Source: Glaucostegus cemiculus
Taxonomy: Eukaryota
Length of the DNA: 64,000 nucleotides
Reading direction: 5' to 3'
Assembly (NCBI GenBank): GCA_976551045.1
Contig: CDPCPM010000025.1
Span: 4,774,001 to 4,838,000, forward strand
Positions 3,842 to 56,100 of the stretch are shown one piece after another (the stretch's first letter is position 1; the number at the start of each line of letters is the position of its first letter). The notes beneath the pieces are model-generated. The model had not been told where the DNA came from, did not search any database, and worked only from the letters and a program-made list of their open reading frames with translations. The position numbers and the translations under genes are program-made.

Positions 3842-4206
3842 ATATTTGTCTTCATTAGCAGGGTATATTAGACAAGGATGGTACAACTTTATAAAACATT
3901 GGTTAGGCCACAATTAGAGTACTATGTGCTTCTAGTTGCCATACTATAAGAAGGACATGATTACACTGGAGAGGATGCAGAGGAGGTTCACCAGGACATT
4001 ACCGGGGATGGAGCTTTTCAGTTAGGAGGAGAGACTACATCAGTTGGCTTTGCTTTCATTAGAATGGAAGAGATTGAGGGGGATCCTCAAAGATGTACAC
4101 AAAATTATGAAGGGAATAGGTAGGGTAGAGAGTAAAAACTTCTCCACATAGCAGAGCATCTGAAACTGAGGGCATAAATTTAGGTTAAGGAGTGAGATCT
4201 GAGGAA
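3842..4206 (+). mobile_element. CR1 LINE ORF2 3' fragment (continues at ~5575-5810 after nested insertions)
   Basis: Degenerate 'LYKTLVRPQLEY...LERMQRRFTR' coding pattern shared with the other CR1 copies; resumes after a duplicated gatctgaggaa. Confidence 0.8.
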
Positions 4207-4235
4207 AACATAAGAGAGACTACAGGCGCTGGTGT

Positions 4236-4274
4236 TGCGAGAGGTCCCGGGTTCAAGTCCCGGACGAGCCCCCA
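4236..4274 (+). other. Copy of the 3' 39 nt of mature tRNA-Pro including CCA (extended primer-binding sequence on the minus strand); not a tRNA gene
   Basis: t-gcgag-aggtc-ccggg-ttcaagt-cccgg-acgagcc-c-cca matches vertebrate tRNA-Pro positions 38-76 with one difference. The minus strand begins TGGGGGCTCGTCCGGGA, the MLV-type tRNA-Pro PBS. Confidence 0.93.
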
Positions 4275-4278
4275 ATTT

Positions 4279-5112
4279 TGTTACGAAACCAGCAACAAAA
4301 GAAGCACACCAATCCCTACTTCAGTGTTAAAACTACTTTATTAATAACTACATCCGATAATACGTAAAATAAGAATAAAAAGTTAGTATATTAGTACACA
4401 ATAAAATATTAGAATCTTAAACTATAACCCCAAAACTACTCGTCGTGTGTGCGTGTCGAATTCCTAAACTCAAAGTCCAGGAATTAGTTCTTAAAGTTCA
4501 GTTTAATAAGCCGTAAAATGAAACACGAATAAAGGCTTCTTCACAAGCACCGTCCACCGAAGACAAAACATAGATATAGAGAGAGATTAGAGAGGAATCA
4601 CGAAATCCAAATGTTCCACTCAAAATTCAAACGACACTTCAGGGCTAACTCGGTAGTGACTTTCTCACCCTGAAAACTCCTGGATCGTGACTGTCCATGC
4701 AAATACCTGTGTTCTTCTACAGGTTAGCAGCAAAGTGAATTCCGTCACTTTGTTCCACAGTATCTGCCACTCTGAAGAGCATCCAAAATGTGGTTATCCA
4801 TGTAAACACCTGTGTCCTTCTACAGGTTACCAACAAAGTGAACTCCACTGGACTACTCCAGGAATCCATCCATGGATTTTAGTGTCAAACACAGTTACTG
4901 TCCTTCATCCATCGACAGAAACAAAACAGGCTGCCATCTCTCCTTCTTCTATCTCTCCATCTGTTTGTCTCTCTCTCTCTCTCCTCTCTTTTTCTTTCTA
5001 GTAATGACCTCATTTCGTTCATCTTATCTTCTGTTGACGTAATACGTTGCACACACACACACAATGTCCCATCTTAAAGGGATATTTGCCAATAGTAAGC
5101 TACTTCATAACA
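4279..5112 (-). mobile_element. Solo LTR (~834 bp) of a tRNA-Pro-primed ERV/LTR element
   Basis: Minus-strand termini TGTTATGAA...TTCGTAACA (inverted repeats); AATAAA ~60 nt from its 3' end (tttatt 4337-4342); internal direct repeat at ~4701-4745 and ~4803-4847; followed by a tRNA-Pro PBS; 4-bp TSD CTGG at 4229-4232 and 5113-5116. Confidence 0.88.
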
Positions 5113-5574
5113 CTGGAAATCTGGAGCAACACACACAAAATGCTGGAGGAGCTCAGCAGGCCAGGCAGCATCTATGCAGGGAATGAACAGGGTTTCATGC
5201 CAAAACCCTTCATCAGGACTGGAAAGGAAGAGGGAAGAAGCCAGAATAAAAGGGGAGTGAGATGGGGAGGGGCACGAGCTGGTGGTGATAGGTGAATCCA
5301 GGTGAGAGGGCGAAGGTAGGTGGGTAGGGAAGGAGAGGTGAAGGGGAATGATATGAGAAGCTGGGAGGTGACAGGTGGGAGATGCAAAGGGCTGAAGAAG
5401 TAGGAATCTAATAGGAGAGGACAGTAGACATGGAACAAAGGGAAAAAGATAGACAGGTCATGAGGGCATTTGAGGAGAAAGAGAGAAGGTGAAAGAGTCA
5501 CAGGAATGAGGGAAAACAAAGGGGGGGGAAGGAAAACAAAGGGGATTGGCTACCAGAAGTTAGAAAAATTTGAG

Positions 5575-12825: not shown

Positions 12826-15823
12826 TCCACTCCAGGTCTTATGGGTCTGACCCTAAACAATAACTTACCTTGAGGCTCCACTTCAGGACCGAAGAGTCGC
12901 CGCCGCGTATCTCGGAAATGTGGCAAGAAGGCTGGGCTGCAGGCGAGGCTGAAACAACGTGGTTACAAGATACCCCTCCCAGCATACTACTAGCTAATGT
13001 CCAGTCCATTGAGAACAAAGTTGATGAACTAAGGGCAAGACTGACTTACCAAAGAGAAGTGAGGGACTGCTGTGTGCTATGTCTCACCGAAACGTGGCTC
13101 ATACCTGCCTCACCTGACTGTGCTATTCAACCTGCGGGCTTCTCAATTCATCAAATTGAGGTACGGCATCCTCGGGCAAGGTTAAAGGCGGAAGGGGTCT
13201 GCTTCTTGATCAATAACTTATGGTGCTCAGATGGGATGGTCCTGGCGAGCTCCTGCTCACCCAGCCTGGAATATCTAACGGTGAAGTGTCGACCATTCTA
13301 TCTGCCAAGGAAGTTCACTTCAGCTACCCTGATAGCAGTCTACATCCCACCACAGACAGACATGAAGCCTGCACTCAATGAGCTATACTCTGTGCTCAAC
13401 TACTTTGAGACAGGATATCCTAAAGCCCTCTTCATCATCGCAGGTGAATTCAACCAGGCCAACCTCAAGAGTGTGTTACCAAAATACTACCAACACATCT
13501 CCTGCTCCACCAGGGGGGCCAACACCCTAGACCACTGCAATACAACCATCAAAGGTGCCTTCTGAGCCACCCCTCGTCCTCACTTTGGGAAATCAAACCA
13601 CCAGGCTGTGCTCCTTCTCCCTGCATACAAACAGAAACTGAAATGGGAGGACCCGGTACGGAGAGTCGTGCAGTACTGGTCTGAGGAAACAGATGAACTC
13701 CTACATGACTGCTTTGAGAGAGTGGACTGGTCCAAGTTCAAAGACTCAGCTGCCAGCCTTGATGAGTATGCTACCACTATCACAGACTTTATCAGCAAGT
13801 GTGTGGAGACTGTGTACCAAAGAGGACAATACAGGTGTTCCCAAACAGAAAACCATGGCTGAACTGGAAGATTCACTCCCTACTGAAGGGGAGGACTGCT
13901 GCACACAAAGCAGGTCGTCCTGATCTGTACAAGAAATCCAGATATGACCTGTGGAAAGCTATCAGGGATGCCAAGAGACAATACGAACTCAAAATAGAGT
14001 CCCTGACCAGCCGTCAGCTATGGCAGTGCTTACATGCCATAACAGGCTACAAGACAAAGTCGGGCTGCATAGTTAACGACAGTGCATCCCTTCCTGATGA
14101 ACTTAACGCATTCTATGTGTGTTTTGAACAGATGGGAAGTGGATTGTCACCATCCATCCTGACAGCCGCCAGTGTAACTGAACCTATGATCACAGTTGAG
14201 GACATAAGATCAGTCTTCCAGAGAGTGAACACGAGGAAAGCACCTGGTCCAGATGATGTCCCTGGCCGTGTGCTCAGATATGGTGCTGATCAGCTGGCAG
14301 AAGTACTTGCAGACATACTTAATCTCTCCCTGCTTCAATCTCAGGTTTCCACCTGTTTTAAGAAGACCACTATCATCCCGGTACCAAAGAAAAACAAGGT
14401 AACACGCCACAATGACTACCGACCAGTGGCTCTGACATCCACCATCATGAAGTGCTTTGAGAGGCTGGTCATGGCACGCATCAACTCCAGCCTCCCAGAC
14501 AAGCTCGACCCATTGCAATTTGCCTATCGCCGAAACAGGTCTACAGCAGACGCCATCTCCCTGGCCCGACACTGAGCTCTGGAGCATCTGGACAGTAAAG
14601 GCACCTATGTTAGACTATTGTTTATTGACTACAGTGCTGCCTTCAATACAATAATCCCAAGCAAACTTGTCACCAAACTCCGAGACCTAGAAATCAACAC
14701 CTCCCTCTGTAACTGGATCCTTGACTTTCTAACAAACAGATTGCAATCAGTGAGGATAGGCAGCAATCCCTCCGGCACAATTATTCTCAACACTGGTGCC
14801 CCACAAGGCTGCGTCCTCAGCCCTCTACTCTACTTCTTACACACTCATCACTGTGTGGCCAGATTATGCTCTAGCTTCACCTACAAGTTTGCAAATGATA
14901 CCACCGTTGTAGGCCATATTTCAAACAGCGATGAGTCCAAGTACAGGAAGGAGATAGAGAGCTTAGTGGAATGGTATCATGACAACAGCCTTTCCCTCAA
15001 TGTCAAAACAAAAGAGCTGGTCATTGACTTCATGAAAGGGGGTGGTGCACATGCACCTGTTTACATCAATGGTGCTGAGGTCAAAAGGGTTGACAGCTTC
15101 AAGTTCCTGGGAGTGAACATCGTCAACAGCCTGTCCTGGTCAAATCACGTAGATGCCATGGCCAAGAAAGCTCACCAGCACCTCTACTTCCTCAGGAGGT
15201 TAAAGAAATTTGGTTTGTCCCCTTTGACTCTCACCAACTTTTATCGAGGCACCATAGAAAGCATCCTATCTGGATGTATCACAGCTTGGTACGGCAATGG
15301 CTCTGCCCAGGACCGCAAGAAACTGCAGAGAGTTGTGGACACAGCCTAGCACATCATGGACACCAGCCTCCCCTTCTTGGACTCTGTCTTTACCTCTCTC
15401 TGTCTTGGTGTAGCAGCCAGCATAATCAAAGACCCCACCCTCCCGGGACATTCTCTCTTCTCTCCTCTTCCATTGGGTAGAAGATACAGGTGCCTGAGGG
15501 CACATACCACCAGACTTAAGGATAGCTTCTACTCCACTGTGATAAGACTATTGAATGGTTCCCTTATATGATGAGATGGACCCTGACTCACGATCTACCC
15601 TGTTGTGACCTTGCACCTTATTGCACTGCACTTTCTCTGTAACTTTGACACTTTATTCTGTACTGTTAGTGTTTTTACTTGTACTACCTCAATGCACTCT
15701 GTACTAACCCAATGTAACTGCACTGTGTAATGAATTGATCTTTGCGATTGTTATGCAAGACAAGTTTTTCATTGTACCTCAGTACAAGTGACAATAATAA
15801 ACCAATACCAATATCAATACCAA
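12826..15823 (+). mobile_element. Near-full-length Rex1/Babar-clade LINE (APE endonuclease + RT), decayed
   Basis: PSILLANVQSIENK..CLTETWL and GEFNQ..TRGANTLDH (APE); [37 protein letters not shown] and FKFLGV (RT); 3' tail AATAAA + (CCAATA)n. Confidence 0.93.
12870..15349 (+). pseudogene. Rex-Babar endonuclease/reverse transcriptase ORF broken into four pieces
   Basis: ORFs 12870-13565, 13608-13862, 13799-14575 and 14618-15349, separated by stops and frameshifts. Confidence 0.9.
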
Positions 15824-38099: not shown

Positions 38100-39833
38100 G
38101 GCCTCCTGTACATTGGTGAGACCCAGCGCAGATTGGGTGACTGCTTCGTTGAGCACCTTTGCTCCATCTGCCACAACAGCCGGGACCTCCTGGTGACCAG
38201 TCATTTCAATTCCACATTGCACTCCCATACTGACATGTCTATCCATGGCCTCCTTTACTGCCACATTGAGACCAGGCACAGATAGGAGGAACAACACCTC
38301 ATATTCCACCTTGGGAGTCTCCAACCTGATGGCCTCAACATCAATTTTTTTAACTTCCAGTAACCCCACCCCTTCTTTTTCCTCCTTCCCCCCCACTCCT
38401 TTGTCTCCCCTTTTTCCTGTGGCTCCCTCCCTGCCCCCCCACCTTGATAACCTGCCCATCTCCTCTCCTTCCCTCCCCCATCCTTTATTCCATGGTTCAC
38501 TGACCTCTCCTGGATTCCTTCTTCAGCCCTTCTACCTACCACCTCTCACTTATTACATCTTCTCCCCCTTCCCCACCCACTACCTCCCCCCTCTCACCTG
38601 GACTGTCTTGTCAACTGAACTCAGTTGCCTGTGTGTGCTCCTCCCCCTCCCCCCACCTTCTTATTCTGGCTTTTGCCCTCTTCCTTCCCAGTCTTGATGA
38701 AGGGTCTCAGCCTGAAACATCGACTGTCTATTAGAACAATAGAACAATACAGCACAGAACAGGCCCTTCGGCCCATCAAGCTGTGCCATCCTACAAACAT
38801 CTCCCAAACTAACTCTTTCCACCCTCATATCCTACTATTCCACATTCTTCCATGTGCTTATCTAACAATCTCTTAAACCTGTCCAACGTATCTGCCTCCA
38901 CTACCACCCCAGGCAGTGCATTCCATGCACCACCACTCTCTGGGTGAAAAACTTCCCTCTGACATCTCCCCTATACTTTCCACCAATTATCTTAAAGGCA
39001 TGCCCTCTCGTCTTGAGCATCTGCGCTCTGGGAAAGAGGCGCTGACTATTAACTCTATCTATTCCTCTCAATATCTTAAACACCTCTATCAAGTCCCCTC
39101 TCATCCTCCTCCTCTCTAATGAGTAGAGCCCTAGCACCTTAAGCCTCTCTTTATATTCCATACCCTCCAATCCAGGCATCATCCTGGTAAATCACCTCTG
39201 CACCCACTCCAACGCCTCCACATCCTTCCTATAATGCGGCGACCAGAACTGAACACAATATTCCAAGTGTGGCCTAACTAGAGTTTTGTAAAGCAGCATC
39301 ATCACCTCTCTGCTCTTGAACTCAATCCCTTTATTTATAAAAGCCAACATCCCATAAGCCTTCTTAACAGCCCTATCCACCTGCAAGGCAACTTTGAGTG
39401 AACTGTGGATATGAACCTCCAGATCCCTCTGCTCCTCTACACTGCCAAGAACCTTGCCATTTACCTTATACTCTGTCCTGGAGTTTGTCCTCCCAAAGAG
39501 CACCACCTCACACTTCTCCGGATTAAACTCCATCTGCCACCTGTCAGCCCAGTTCTGCATCCTATCAATATCCCCCTGTAAGCTCCTACAGTCCTCCACA
39601 CTATCTACCACACCACCGATCTTGGTGTCATCTGCAAACTTACCAACCCATCCCTCCACTCCTTCATCTAAATCATCTATGAATATAACAAAGAGTAGAG
39701 GCCCCAGAACTGATCCCTGCGGGACTCCACTAGTCACACTATTTCCCTCCATGGATGCTGCCTGACCTGCTGAGTTCCTCCAGCACTATTTGTGTATTGC
39801 TCCAGATTCCAGCATCTGCAGAATTTCGTGTGT
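38100..39833 (+). mobile_element. Penelope-like element: GIY-YIG endonuclease C-terminus plus 3' terminus, split by a CR1
   Basis: 38100-38360 translates GLLYIGETQRRLGDCFVEH..SHFNS..EEQHLIFHLGSLQPDGLN (GIY-YIG second half). Flanked by a 13-bp TSD ctcaattaaaYgc (38087-38099, 39834-39846). Confidence 0.9.
38733..39738 (-). mobile_element. Young 5'-truncated CR1 LINE
   Basis: ORFs 39192-39752 (SGVPQGSVLGP, KFADDTK) and 38901-39182; tail (TATTGTTC)n; flanked by ctatt (38728-38732, 39739-39743). Confidence 0.95.
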
Positions 39834-39869
39834 CTCAATTAAATGCATAATCTGACAGAGGATTTTAAA

Positions 39870-39990
39870 ATGCTAGATCCACCTGAGAGAGACATACAGG
39901 ACCTTACTTTAATACATTAACTGAAAAATAGGGCAGTAATATTGTGCCTTCAATACTATATTATGTTTTGGTGCTCAAGTATCTGGAGAA
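39870..39990 (-). mobile_element. DeuSINE-like relic (probable host of the Penelope insertion; other half ~37985-38090)
   Basis: atccacctgagag...tgctcaagtatctggag resembles the reverse complement of the Deu domain as recalled. Confidence 0.4.
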
Positions 39991-52443: not shown

Positions 52444-52465
52444 ATTCCAGACAGCATCTGGAATC

Positions 52466-53158
52466 ATGGATACTGACTCCCACAACGCCATGGTACTCAA
52501 GCTTCCGGTTTTCTGGACCTCGCAGCCTCAAGTCTGGTTTGAAAAGGCAGAGGCCCAGTTCAGCGTCAGGGGCACCGAAGCCGACGCCACAAAGTATTAC
52601 TGCATGGTCAACGCCCTCGACCAGGACACGGCTGGTCGCATCATCGATTTCCTACGCCAGCCACCGACGGAGGACAGGTACGCCCGAATCAAGGCTCTCC
52701 TCATCCGCACGTTCGGCCTTTCCCTCAGCGACCGAGCCACGAGGCTCCTCCATGTGGACGGCCTAGGCGACCGCAAGCCCTCTGAGTTGATGGACGAGAT
52801 GCTGGCACTCATGGACGACCATCAGCCATGTTTCCTGTTCCGGCAGCTATTCCTCGAGCAACTCCCGGATGATATGCGCCCCCTCCTCGCCGACGGAGAT
52901 TTCAGCGACCTGCGTGCCCTCGCGGCCACAGCGGATGTCATTTGGTGCAGTCGGCGGCGAGGAGTGGCCTCCGCTTGCGTAGCGGCAGCCTTGCAGCCTC
53001 TGGCTAAGGTTCCGAAACCCAAACCGTCAGGGCCCGCAGAGGACAAAGACAAAGGCCCAGGGCAGTGGTGTTTCTACCACAAGAGGTGGGGAACAAATGT
53101 GCGCCGCTGCCAGCCGCCATGTTCTTTCCCGGGAAACGCCGAGGCCGGCCGTCATTAG
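52466..53158 (+). CDS. gag: Retrotransposon Gag (230 aa, open frame) with CHCC zinc knuckle
   Basis: LKLPVFW..PQVWF..AEAQF, LGDRKPSELM and C-terminal CFYH-x9-C-QPP-C. Confidence 0.9.
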   Translation: MDTDSHNAMVLKLPVFWTSQPQVWFEKAEAQFSVRGTEADATKYYCMVNALDQDTAGRIIDFLRQPPTEDRYARIKALLIRTFGLSLSDRATRLLHVDGLGDRKPSELMDEMLALMDDHQPCFLFRQLFLEQLPDDMRPLLADGDFSDLRALAATADVIWCSRRRGVASACVAAALQPLAKVPKPKPSGPAEDKDKGPGQWCFYHKRWGTNVRRCQPPCSFPGNAEAGRH

Positions 53159-53192
53159 TGGGTTCGACGGCTGGCCAGCGAGACAGCCTACT
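53131..53192 (+). promoter_or_regulatory. Putative -1 ribosomal frameshift signal (G GGA AAC + stem-loop/pseudoknot)
   Basis: The heptamer is in gag phase and pol is in the -1 frame. Stem 53143-53153/53166-53176; loop 53157-53164 can pair with 53185-53192. Confidence 0.8.
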
Positions 53193-56100
53193 CTTCCTTT
53201 GAGACCGGATCACTGGGCGGCGTTTCCTGGTGGATATGGGGGCCGAAATCATCGTCCTTCCCCCCTTCAACATGGATACCCGCAACGCAGTCAAAGGCCC
53301 TGAACTCACCGCTGCGAACGGCTCTACCATCCGCACCTACGGCTTGCGCACCATCCTGTTATGTTTTGGGATCAGTTCATTTACCTGGACTTTCACTGTA
53401 GCAGCGGTATTGCAGCCACTGCTAGGGTTGGATTTCGTGCGTGCCAACCGCTTGCTGGTCGATCTGAAGGGCCGGTGTCTGGTCCATGCTGAGACTTTCC
53501 AAAGCTACCAGCTCGGGAAGGCCCGGTCACCTGCCCCCCACCTTGACTCTGTTGCACCCTCCAACAACAAGTTTGCTAAGGTGTTAGCAGAGTTTCCTTC
53601 CATTATCACCCCGCAATTCTCCGCTGCAGTCCCCAAGCACGGCGTGCAGCACTACATCACCACACAGGGACCTCTGCTACACGCCCGTGCCCGCAGGTTC
53701 CCGCCCGACAAGCTCCGCCTCGCCAAGGAGGAGTTTCGCAGGATGGAGGAGTTGGGCATCATCCGCCGTTCCGACAGCCCATGGGCATCCCCGCTCCGCA
53801 TGGTGCCCAAAGCAGCGGGGGGCTGGAGACCCTGGGGAGACTACAGGAGGCTCAATGATGCCACGACTGCCGACAGGTACCCTGTGCTCCACATCCAGGA
53901 CTTCACAGCGAACCTCCATGGGGCGACCATTTTCTCTAGGATTGACCTGGTCCGGGGATACCATCAGATCCCTGTTCACCCCGACGACGTGCCCTAAACA
54001 GCCCTCATCACCCCCTTTGGGCTGTTCGAATTCCTCCGAATGCCTTTCGGCCTAAAAAACGCCACCCAGACTTTTCAACGGCTAATGGACTCAGTGAGCA
54101 GAGGCCTCAATTTCACTTTTGTGTACCTGGATGACATCCTGGTAGCCAGCAAGTCGCGCAAGGAGCACTCAGCCCATCTCCGTCAGCTCTGCCAGCGCCT
54201 GAGCGACCACGGGTTGGTGATCAACTTGGCGAAGTGCCAGTTCGGGCTGCGGGAGATCGACTTCTTGGGCCACAGGGTGAACCAGCATGGCGCCGCCCCG
54301 CTACCCGACAAGGTACAGGCCGTCCTCCAATTTCCCAAGCCCTACACGGTCAAGGGCCTGCAAGAATTCGTGGGAATGGTGAACTTTTACCATCGTTTTG
54401 TGCCCGCAACAGCACGCATCATGCGGCCCTTGTTCGGACTCATGGCCGGCAAGGCCAAGGATGTTGTTTGGGACACGGAGGCCTCGGCAGCTTTCGATCA
54501 GGCTAAGGAGGCACTGGCCAAGGCAACACTTCTGGTGCACCCAAGAGTCGACATCCCCACAGCGCTCACTGTCGACGCTTCCGACACGGCGGTCGGTGGG
54601 GTCTTGGAACAACTCGTTGAGGGCCAGTGGAGACTGCTTGCTTTTTTCAGCCGATATTTGTGGCCGCCAGAGGTCAGGTACAGCGTTTTTGATAGGGAGC
54701 TGCTGGCTCTTTACCTGGCTGTCCGCCATTTCCGTTATTTCCTTGAGGGGAGGTACTTTACCATCTATACGTTTGCCCTGGCAAAGACGTCGGACCCGTG
54801 GTCGGCTCGGCAGCAACGGCACCTCTCCTTCATTTCGGAGTTTACCACCGACATTCGCCACATCGCTGGGAAGAGCAATGTGGTCGCCGACATGCTGTCC
54901 CGCTCCCACATCCATTCAGCGACCACCCCAGCCACAGGCGTCGACTACACAGTGCTGGCGCAAGCGCAGCAGGCAGATGACGAGATCCCGGCATACTGCA
55001 CCTCGCTCTCGGGACTCCGGCTGGAAGATGTTCCTGTTGACCCTACGGCGATCCGGCTCCTGTGTGACATGTCTACTGGCAGACCCTGGCCGGTGGTGCC
55101 AGCAGCGTGGAGACGACTGGTTTTCGACGCCCTGCATAGCCTGGCCCACCCGCCCATCAGGGCGACTATCAGGATGGTGGCAGAAAAATTCGTATGGCAT
55201 GGTCTACATAAGCTGGTGGGGCAGTGGGCCAGAACCTGCATGCACTGTCAGACAGCCAAGGTCCAGCAGCACGTGAAGGCTCCCCTCCATCATTTTCAGC
55301 CAACGCTTGGCAGGTTCCAGCACATTCACGTGGACATCGTCGGACCACTGCCAGTTTCCCGGGGCGCCAGGTATATTTTCACTGTGGTGGACAGGTTCAC
55401 CAGGTGGCCAGAGGCAGTGCCGCTGGCAGACACGTCCACCACGTCCTGTGCCAGAGCCCTCATTGCCCACTGGATTGCCCGGTTTGGCCTCCCAACGGAC
55501 GTTATCTCCGACCGAGGGGCGCAGTTCACGTCCGGCTTGTGGACGGCACTGGCGCAGCTCTTGGGTTCCCTCCTGCATCACACCACGGCATACCACCCGC
55601 AGGCCAATGGTTTGGTGGAGCGTTTCCACCGGCACCTCAAGTCCGCCCTGATGGCTCGCATGCAGGGACCTAACTGGACAGACGAGCTCCCCTAGGTCCT
55701 GCTGGGCATCTGTACGGCCCCCAAGGAAGATTTGGGCACCTCCTGAGCCAAGCTGGTCTACGCTTCCCCCCTCACGGTACCGGGCGAGTTTGTACCAGGG
55801 GCTCAGGACCCAGCAGGGACCCCGGCGGAAGTGTCAGCGAAGCTGCGGGCCAAGGTGGGGACCTTGGCACTGATCCCGGCCTCCAGGCACGGCACAGCGC
55901 CTTCTTTCGTTCCGAAGGACCTCCAGGGCTGTGAGTATGTTTTCATCCGCCGGGGGGCACATGGGTCACCCCTGCAGAAGCCGTACGAGGGGCCTTTCCA
56001 GGTGGTTCGGCGCGGTGGTTCAACATATGTCATCGAGGTTGGGGGTCGTGAGCAGACTTTCACAGTGGACTGCCTGAAGCCGGCGCATCTGGACATTGCA

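Follow-up and report, generated by a model that had tools for sequence, protein, structure and literature searches.

An LTR extended by part of its primer tRNA

At positions 4229-5116 of the window (the whole 64,000-nucleotide stretch of Glaucostegus cemiculus DNA analysed here, contig C25, 4774001-4838000), the minus strand reads, in this order, an 834-bp LTR (5112 to 4279), the spacer AAAT, 39 nt complementary to tRNA-Pro positions 76 to 38 and the trinucleotide ACA, with CCAG on both sides of the unit and no internal element sequence beyond the tRNA copy. The LTR (4279-5112, minus strand) is a complete U3-R-U5 unit of Gmr1-like Gypsy type with 90-92% identity to both LTRs of full-length copies, and the 4-nt spacer that leads to the primer binding site (PBS; spacer at 4275-4278, minus strand) is the same in ordinary family members (30/30). 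The adjoining 18 nt (4257-4274, minus strand) represent a normal PBS copied from tRNA-Pro 76 to 59, CCA included, with one substitution, at position 59; they run on into a 21-nt read-through primer copy (4236-4256, minus strand) of positions 58 to 38, whose last base adjoins G37 and coincides with the modal stop of the family. Primer sequence past position 59 is found in register with the LTR, as in a plus-strand strong-stop read-through product, and 38 of the 39 letters at 4236-4274 agree with the tRNA-Pro genes of the host with CCA added, position 59 being the sole difference. ARAGORN called no tRNA gene over the whole window and Rfam yielded only a tRNA-like match below threshold, as expected for half a tRNA.

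The unit is enclosed by a 4-bp target-site duplication, with one copy (CTGG, or CCAG on the minus strand) beyond the U3 end at 5113-5116 and the second (CTGG) at 4229-4232, and it interrupts a host repeat (minus strand, 5117-5190, resuming at about 4195-4228) that is delimited by its paralogous copies. Because the 4-mer is single and ACA is missing at the corresponding place in other copies of this repeat (window 39740-39900 and loci L097 and L154), the duplication is real, and the condition of an unduplicated CTGG, which the first-pass annotation had named as refuting its reading, does not hold. The first-pass annotation had placed the LTR, the AAAT, the tRNA-Pro copy down to position 38 and the duplication outside that copy, all of which holds, as does the lack of internal sequence; the comparison with the host's tRNA-Pro genes that it suggested gave the match described above. 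Its term solo LTR is not supported in the usual sense: in a solo LTR derived by recombination the duplication directly flanks the LTR, whereas here 46 extra bases intervene, and nothing points to LTR-LTR recombination. It took the end of the unit to be derived from the tRNA, which is correct for the 39 nt but not for the final ACA (4233-4235, minus strand), since the tRNA would go on with G37 and the anticodon. As judged from a series of sibling loci (see below), these three letters likely represent the terminal bases of a U3 end in inverted orientation, supplying a CA-3' attachment end. Elsewhere on the plus strand of the window lie an RT-RNase H fragment (329-1294), a LINE-like RT (13766-15349) and Gypsy remains in the order RT-RNase H-integrase (52445-55695).

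Assignment of the LTR to a Gmr1-like family

By domain order and a SCAN gag, the LTR at 4279-5112 is assigned on sequence grounds to a Gmr1-like Ty3/Gypsy family. Pfam searches gave the order SCAN, zinc knuckle, integrase, RT, RNase H, with Integrase_H2C2, rve and p58_C ahead of RVT_1 and RNase H in L178 and L176, and PF02023 (SCAN) in 4/4 gag-containing frames. In the portions of the literature available, integrase upstream of RT is the Gmr1-like arrangement (PMC8220671) and a SCAN-related gag is tied to Gmr1-like elements (PMC8321522); the family shares both features, and LTRs, with these elements, and differs in that 4229-5116 is an aberrant, LTR-only product of a kind not mentioned in those portions. 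Full-length copies have two direct LTRs, a PBS, a polypurine tract and a short duplication without env, their pol ending near the purine tract and the 3' LTR, and direct LTRs with a 4-bp duplication were present in 10 of 12 fetched long stretches. An integrase-core deletion is common to several full-length copies (L171, L180 and L182, compared with L178), from which it follows that non-autonomous sublineages have spread.

Exact matches to the LTR end plus PBS number 3219 in the genome. In 30/30 unselected copies (the first 30 places found) the PBS is 18 nt long and leads into a shared leader, which departs from the tRNA sequence directly after PBS base 18; the 39 nt are hence not ordinary internal leader, contrary to the condition that the first-pass annotation had named as fatal to its reading. 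In a separate set of normal copies (first 100 places), the base that opens the leader, directly after the PBS, differs in 10/100 (G in 5, T in 3, A in 2); successful transfers may here have misincorporated one base opposite m1A58.

Read-through junctions in the genome

The locus is one of about 200, a fact that the first-pass annotation overlooked. Genome-wide searches with patterns of equal length returned 206 read-through against 2715 normal LTR-PBS junctions (7.1%), and a slightly different pattern returned 228 read-through junctions, the first 100 of which were tabulated and fetched. A script recovered 99 of these 100, and 88 were kept after removal of one duplicate and of 10 without a full family LTR match; the latter 10 are also omitted from the stop counts. 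The dropped rows comprise L073 and L089 (true genes), L123 (a likely duplicate of L121) and the second match in L091, and the count at position 34 omits L151 and rows with indels. The first 30 loci were chosen for the extension and enter the frequencies only if they are among the first 100. Contigs C1, C3 and C4 are rich in normal copies (36 in ~10.5 Mb of C1) and have no read-through copy among the junctions listed.

The ratio of 206 to 2715 argues for a recurrent accident and not for a captured terminus, which had been the second option of the first-pass annotation. A fixed terminus or leader of the family or a subfamily, carrying half a tRNA with its B-box in the manner of a TRIMp3-like capture, might account for a number of loci as large as about 200, and at L110, L149 and L124 the copy runs back into the leader in the sense orientation, which might in principle permit transcription with an extended PBS. 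We nevertheless hold this to be very improbable: end points vary by locus from 52 to 1, three isoacceptors are represented, downstream junctions differ, repeated junctions sit on LTRs about 4-8% apart, the tRNA sequence is external to the LTR and runs antisense to it, and normal junctions make up 93% of the total. The available part of a description of the Helenus, Ajax and Cassandra TRIMs (PMC10886601) likewise has LTR elements with tRNA-derived sequence and a 4-bp duplication in animals, but there the tRNA-like part is a fixed LTR component that lacks complementarity to the PBS. In contrast, the sequence here is that of the primer, lies beyond the LTR and varies between loci, and instead of a fixed small-RNA sequence inside both LTRs, as in Helenus and Ajax (TRIMp3), we find a variable one at 7% of junctions. 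Two other candidates were rejected: a bipartite PBS, with the element complementary to the 5' half of the tRNA, gave no match >8 nt in 3/3 copies, and a re-mobilised chimeric subfamily is at odds with shared junctions on LTRs that are 22-65 differences apart in ~820 bp.

The absence of internal sequence at the locus, together with the LINE-like repeats that are common in the window, could also suggest that the interior of a provirus was deleted or that a LINE-made tRNA pseudogene landed beside a solo LTR. This explanation is highly improbable: the tRNA copy is in exact PBS register at every locus (206), the normal leader is unlike the tRNA right after base 18, and a single 4-bp duplication encloses LTR and tRNA copy together.

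Signatures of a mature tRNA template

Two signatures in the copied sequence argue that the read-through copies were templated by mature tRNA. First, base 34 among the unselected copies reaching position 33 (n=22) was G in 19, U in 2, C in 1 and A in none. In the source as available to us, inosine is read as G and tRNA-Pro-GGG is absent from eukaryotes (PMC8062790); G, never A, at position 34 therefore points to a mature, inosine-bearing template. The genome contains 37 matches to the anticodon arm, and among the 33 examined, those with a GGG anticodon lie against an LTR (15/15, three of them identical duplicates), whereas those with an AGG anticodon are free-standing genes with T-run terminators (3/3). 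Second, position 58 was miscopied at 50 junctions (A>G 33, A>T 17, A>C 0), as counted from a listing of at most 228 junctions, and within the first 100 junctions miscopying affected 22/100 at position 58 versus 3/100 at position 59 (p=6e-5). Heteroduplex repair could account for part of the A>G class, as the leader of ordinary copies starts with that letter, and only the 17 A>T cases escape this caveat. The modification m1A58 is present on human tRNA-Pro according to the available text of PMC11251516. Other recurrent mismatches in the copies sit on CpG sites.

These family-level signatures at positions 34 and 58 bear out the earlier proposal that reverse transcriptase read past m1A58 into a mature primer. 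At 4229-5116 itself, base 58 is unaltered and the stop precedes position 34, so the case for a mature template at this copy rests on its CCA and on the family. As separate repeats with tRNA sequence, we noted a dispersed repeat with a variant tRNA-Pro-CGG and near-identical flanks (L067, L076, L078, L081 and L084) and a similar repeated tRNA-Gly unit (L187-L194).

Stop sites in the tRNA

Position 38, at which the copy in the window ends, is the mode of the family: of 55 copies extending this far, 23 stop here, whereas the other positions in the interval 46-28 together have 46 stops in 842 position-passes (p=2e-13). Further peaks at 40 (11/68) and 42 (7/79) are not accounted for by a known blocking base, and five of the copies ending at 40 go on as a fold-back on themselves. 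Among 16 copies none stops between 27 and 15 and the remainder end between 14 and 4, and L066 carries a copy of the whole tRNA-Pro-CGG. At four loci (L125, L134, L165 and L170), whose LTRs are 22-65 differences apart, the copy switches in register onto tRNA-Gly-GCC exactly between 38 and 37.

tRNA-Pro carries m1G37, and the stop at 38 and the switches onto tRNA-Gly fit a block at a presumed m1G37. The first-pass annotation had placed the halt at or near this base; the preferred halt agrees with it, and m1G37 is a candidate for the block. Copies that pass position 37 are mostly of the IGG isoacceptor, which would suit an isoacceptor-specific m1G37. Alternatively, the IGG excess among these copies may reflect a priming preference. 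In human mim-tRNAseq data, as given in the accessible portion of PMC8062790, tRNA-Pro-AGG is without an m1G37 signal and Pro-UGG has one; the lack of signal on Pro-AGG also counts against the presumed m1G37.

Second ends of the insertions

Among 98 unselected loci, the left end was intact in 71 and lacking in 27. Forty-four of the 71 finish in an inverted U3 end with a duplication (41 exact), two in an inverted U3 end without a duplication and three in a short ACA end; 10 leave the fetched stretch inside element sequence, four contain element pieces but no end, and eight have neither, the second end being left unassigned in 24 of the 71. A sense U5 end with a duplication occurred at none of these 71 loci; L008, which lies outside this set, has one. 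The duplication at the short ACA ends is exact at 4229-5116 and has one mismatch at L117 and L003, the assignment of L003 probably being due to chance. At sibling loci the inverted U3 ends span 12 bp to >2 kb and form a graded series (842, 480, 193, 91, 42 and 12 bp, and 6 bp at L117 with its one-mismatch duplication). These second ends, and an ACA that the tRNA did not template, lead us to abandon the claim of the first-pass annotation that integrase used a tRNA-derived attachment end.

Divergence between the two arms of a locus has a median of 1.35%, versus 6.0% to other loci (47 pairs), a similarity that gene conversion could have raised; five arm pairs have 0 differences over 571-839 bp, and a locus's own arm was the nearest in 42/47 when set against up to 8 random other loci. 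For normal LTR pairs the difference is 0.1-1.7%. The position of 87 of the 127 junctions could be established; 50 are direct and 37 have inserted letters, some being A-runs. Short homology of >=2 nt was present at 24/50 direct junctions (two-sided null 18%, p=1e-6) and of >=3 nt at 12/50 (null 6%). As shared junctions lie on LTRs that have diverged by 4-5%, the read-through events are independent.

Several loci show other kinds of join. At L111, L132, L016, L161, L143 and L071, A-runs link the tRNA copy to the natural minus-strand 5' end (spacer plus one PBS base), which suggests slippage or tailing before end-joining. At L091 (contig C7, 9178205-9182705), two opposed primer copies are joined, inside an inverted LTR pair, via a CCA-ended copy of another tRNA, which we take to be tRNA-Asp. 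Read-through copies rejoin the leader in sense at L133 as well as at L110, L149 and L124, giving elements with an extended PBS.

The ACA at 4233-4235 is probably a minimal switch onto U3: of the final six letters derived from the tRNA, four agree with the inverted U3 end, which then continues with ACA. On the other hand, with homology at just four of six letters, ACA might have been added untemplated after the same read-through, by reverse transcriptase or by host end-joining, its chance CA end then being accepted by integrase. We think this unlikely, even though A is the commonest base to follow a stop at 38 (14/27), inserted letters, including A-runs, are frequent at the located junctions (37/87), and L008 and L016 likewise go on with ACA before other sequence. 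A terminal dinucleotide can moreover suffice for Ty1 integrase, which in the part of the study available takes foreign DNA merely ending in the right dinucleotide (PMC2939329). What speaks against untemplated addition is the graded inverted U3 series itself and the exact match of the three letters to the inverted U3 terminus.

A proposed model for insertion of read-through DNA

We propose, with a probability of roughly 0.85, that the LTR with its 39-nt tRNA-Pro copy arose when plus-strand strong-stop synthesis ran past m1A58 of the mature primer, stalled before a presumed m1G37 and was integrated via a minimal inverted U3 end. tRNA-Pro primes the family at its 18-nt PBS, and at ~7% of LTR-PBS junctions the plus strand, as its sequence signature shows, entered the mature, modified tRNA. 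Plus-strand transfer would then fail because the extra tail could not pair with the leader. From the junction pattern, the 3' end would next move, through short homology or end-joining, onto another DNA or RNA present in the same particle, and the product most often terminates in an inverted copy of its own LTR 5' end; the chemistry of this joining may be fold-back, tail-to-tail joining or both, and fill-in would give a duplex with two U3 ends. Integrase would insert this duplex, as the 4-bp duplication implies. At 4229-5116 the second end would amount to three letters only, probably the extreme of the inverted U3 series.

Primer copying into element DNA has precedents, as tRNA sequence occurs at the LTR circle junctions of MLV and Ty1. 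Those junction products are extrachromosomal circles and not integrated U3-U3 products. For HIV-1, the available portions of two papers describe read-through to the position-37 modification as a minor product of no use for transfer (PMC13191261) and the read-through DNA as one that "cannot be integrated" (PMC8599865), and the P3-P5 read-through products stop at ms2t6A37 of tRNA-Lys3. Whereas the HIV-1 products are biochemical or from cell culture, those described here are heritable genomic insertions with integrase-type duplications, made by a tRNA-Pro-primed Gypsy element. Sequencing of Arabidopsis particles found inversion circles from autointegration, with no mention of read-through in the part of the report available (PMC7197481). 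Our literature search, which covered mainly recent and freely accessible papers, returned no report of genomic read-through fossils; read-through itself is known from HIV-1, and genomic insertions of such products are apparently undescribed.

Implications

On balance, we lean towards regarding these loci as a fossil "tRNA-seq library" that records I34, m1A58 and an isoacceptor-specific m1G37 in vivo, and as the outcome of an undescribed salvage of read-through DNA into integrable two-U3 palindromes at ~7% of PBS-bearing insertions. If so, hundreds of independent germline insertions would hold a record of primer modification, and a side product known in vitro and called non-integrating in HIV papers would become a countable in vivo outcome. 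Primer-tRNA modifications and isoacceptor use would be readable from genome sequence alone, including in lineages never profiled, and the role of m1A58 as a stop would become testable family by family. A practical caution is that GGG-anticodon "tRNA-Pro genes" in such assemblies are retrotransposon products. For the elements themselves, the same events supply young inverted repeats as well as sequence derived from tRNA, and would offer whole or chimeric tRNAs a direct entry route into LTR elements.
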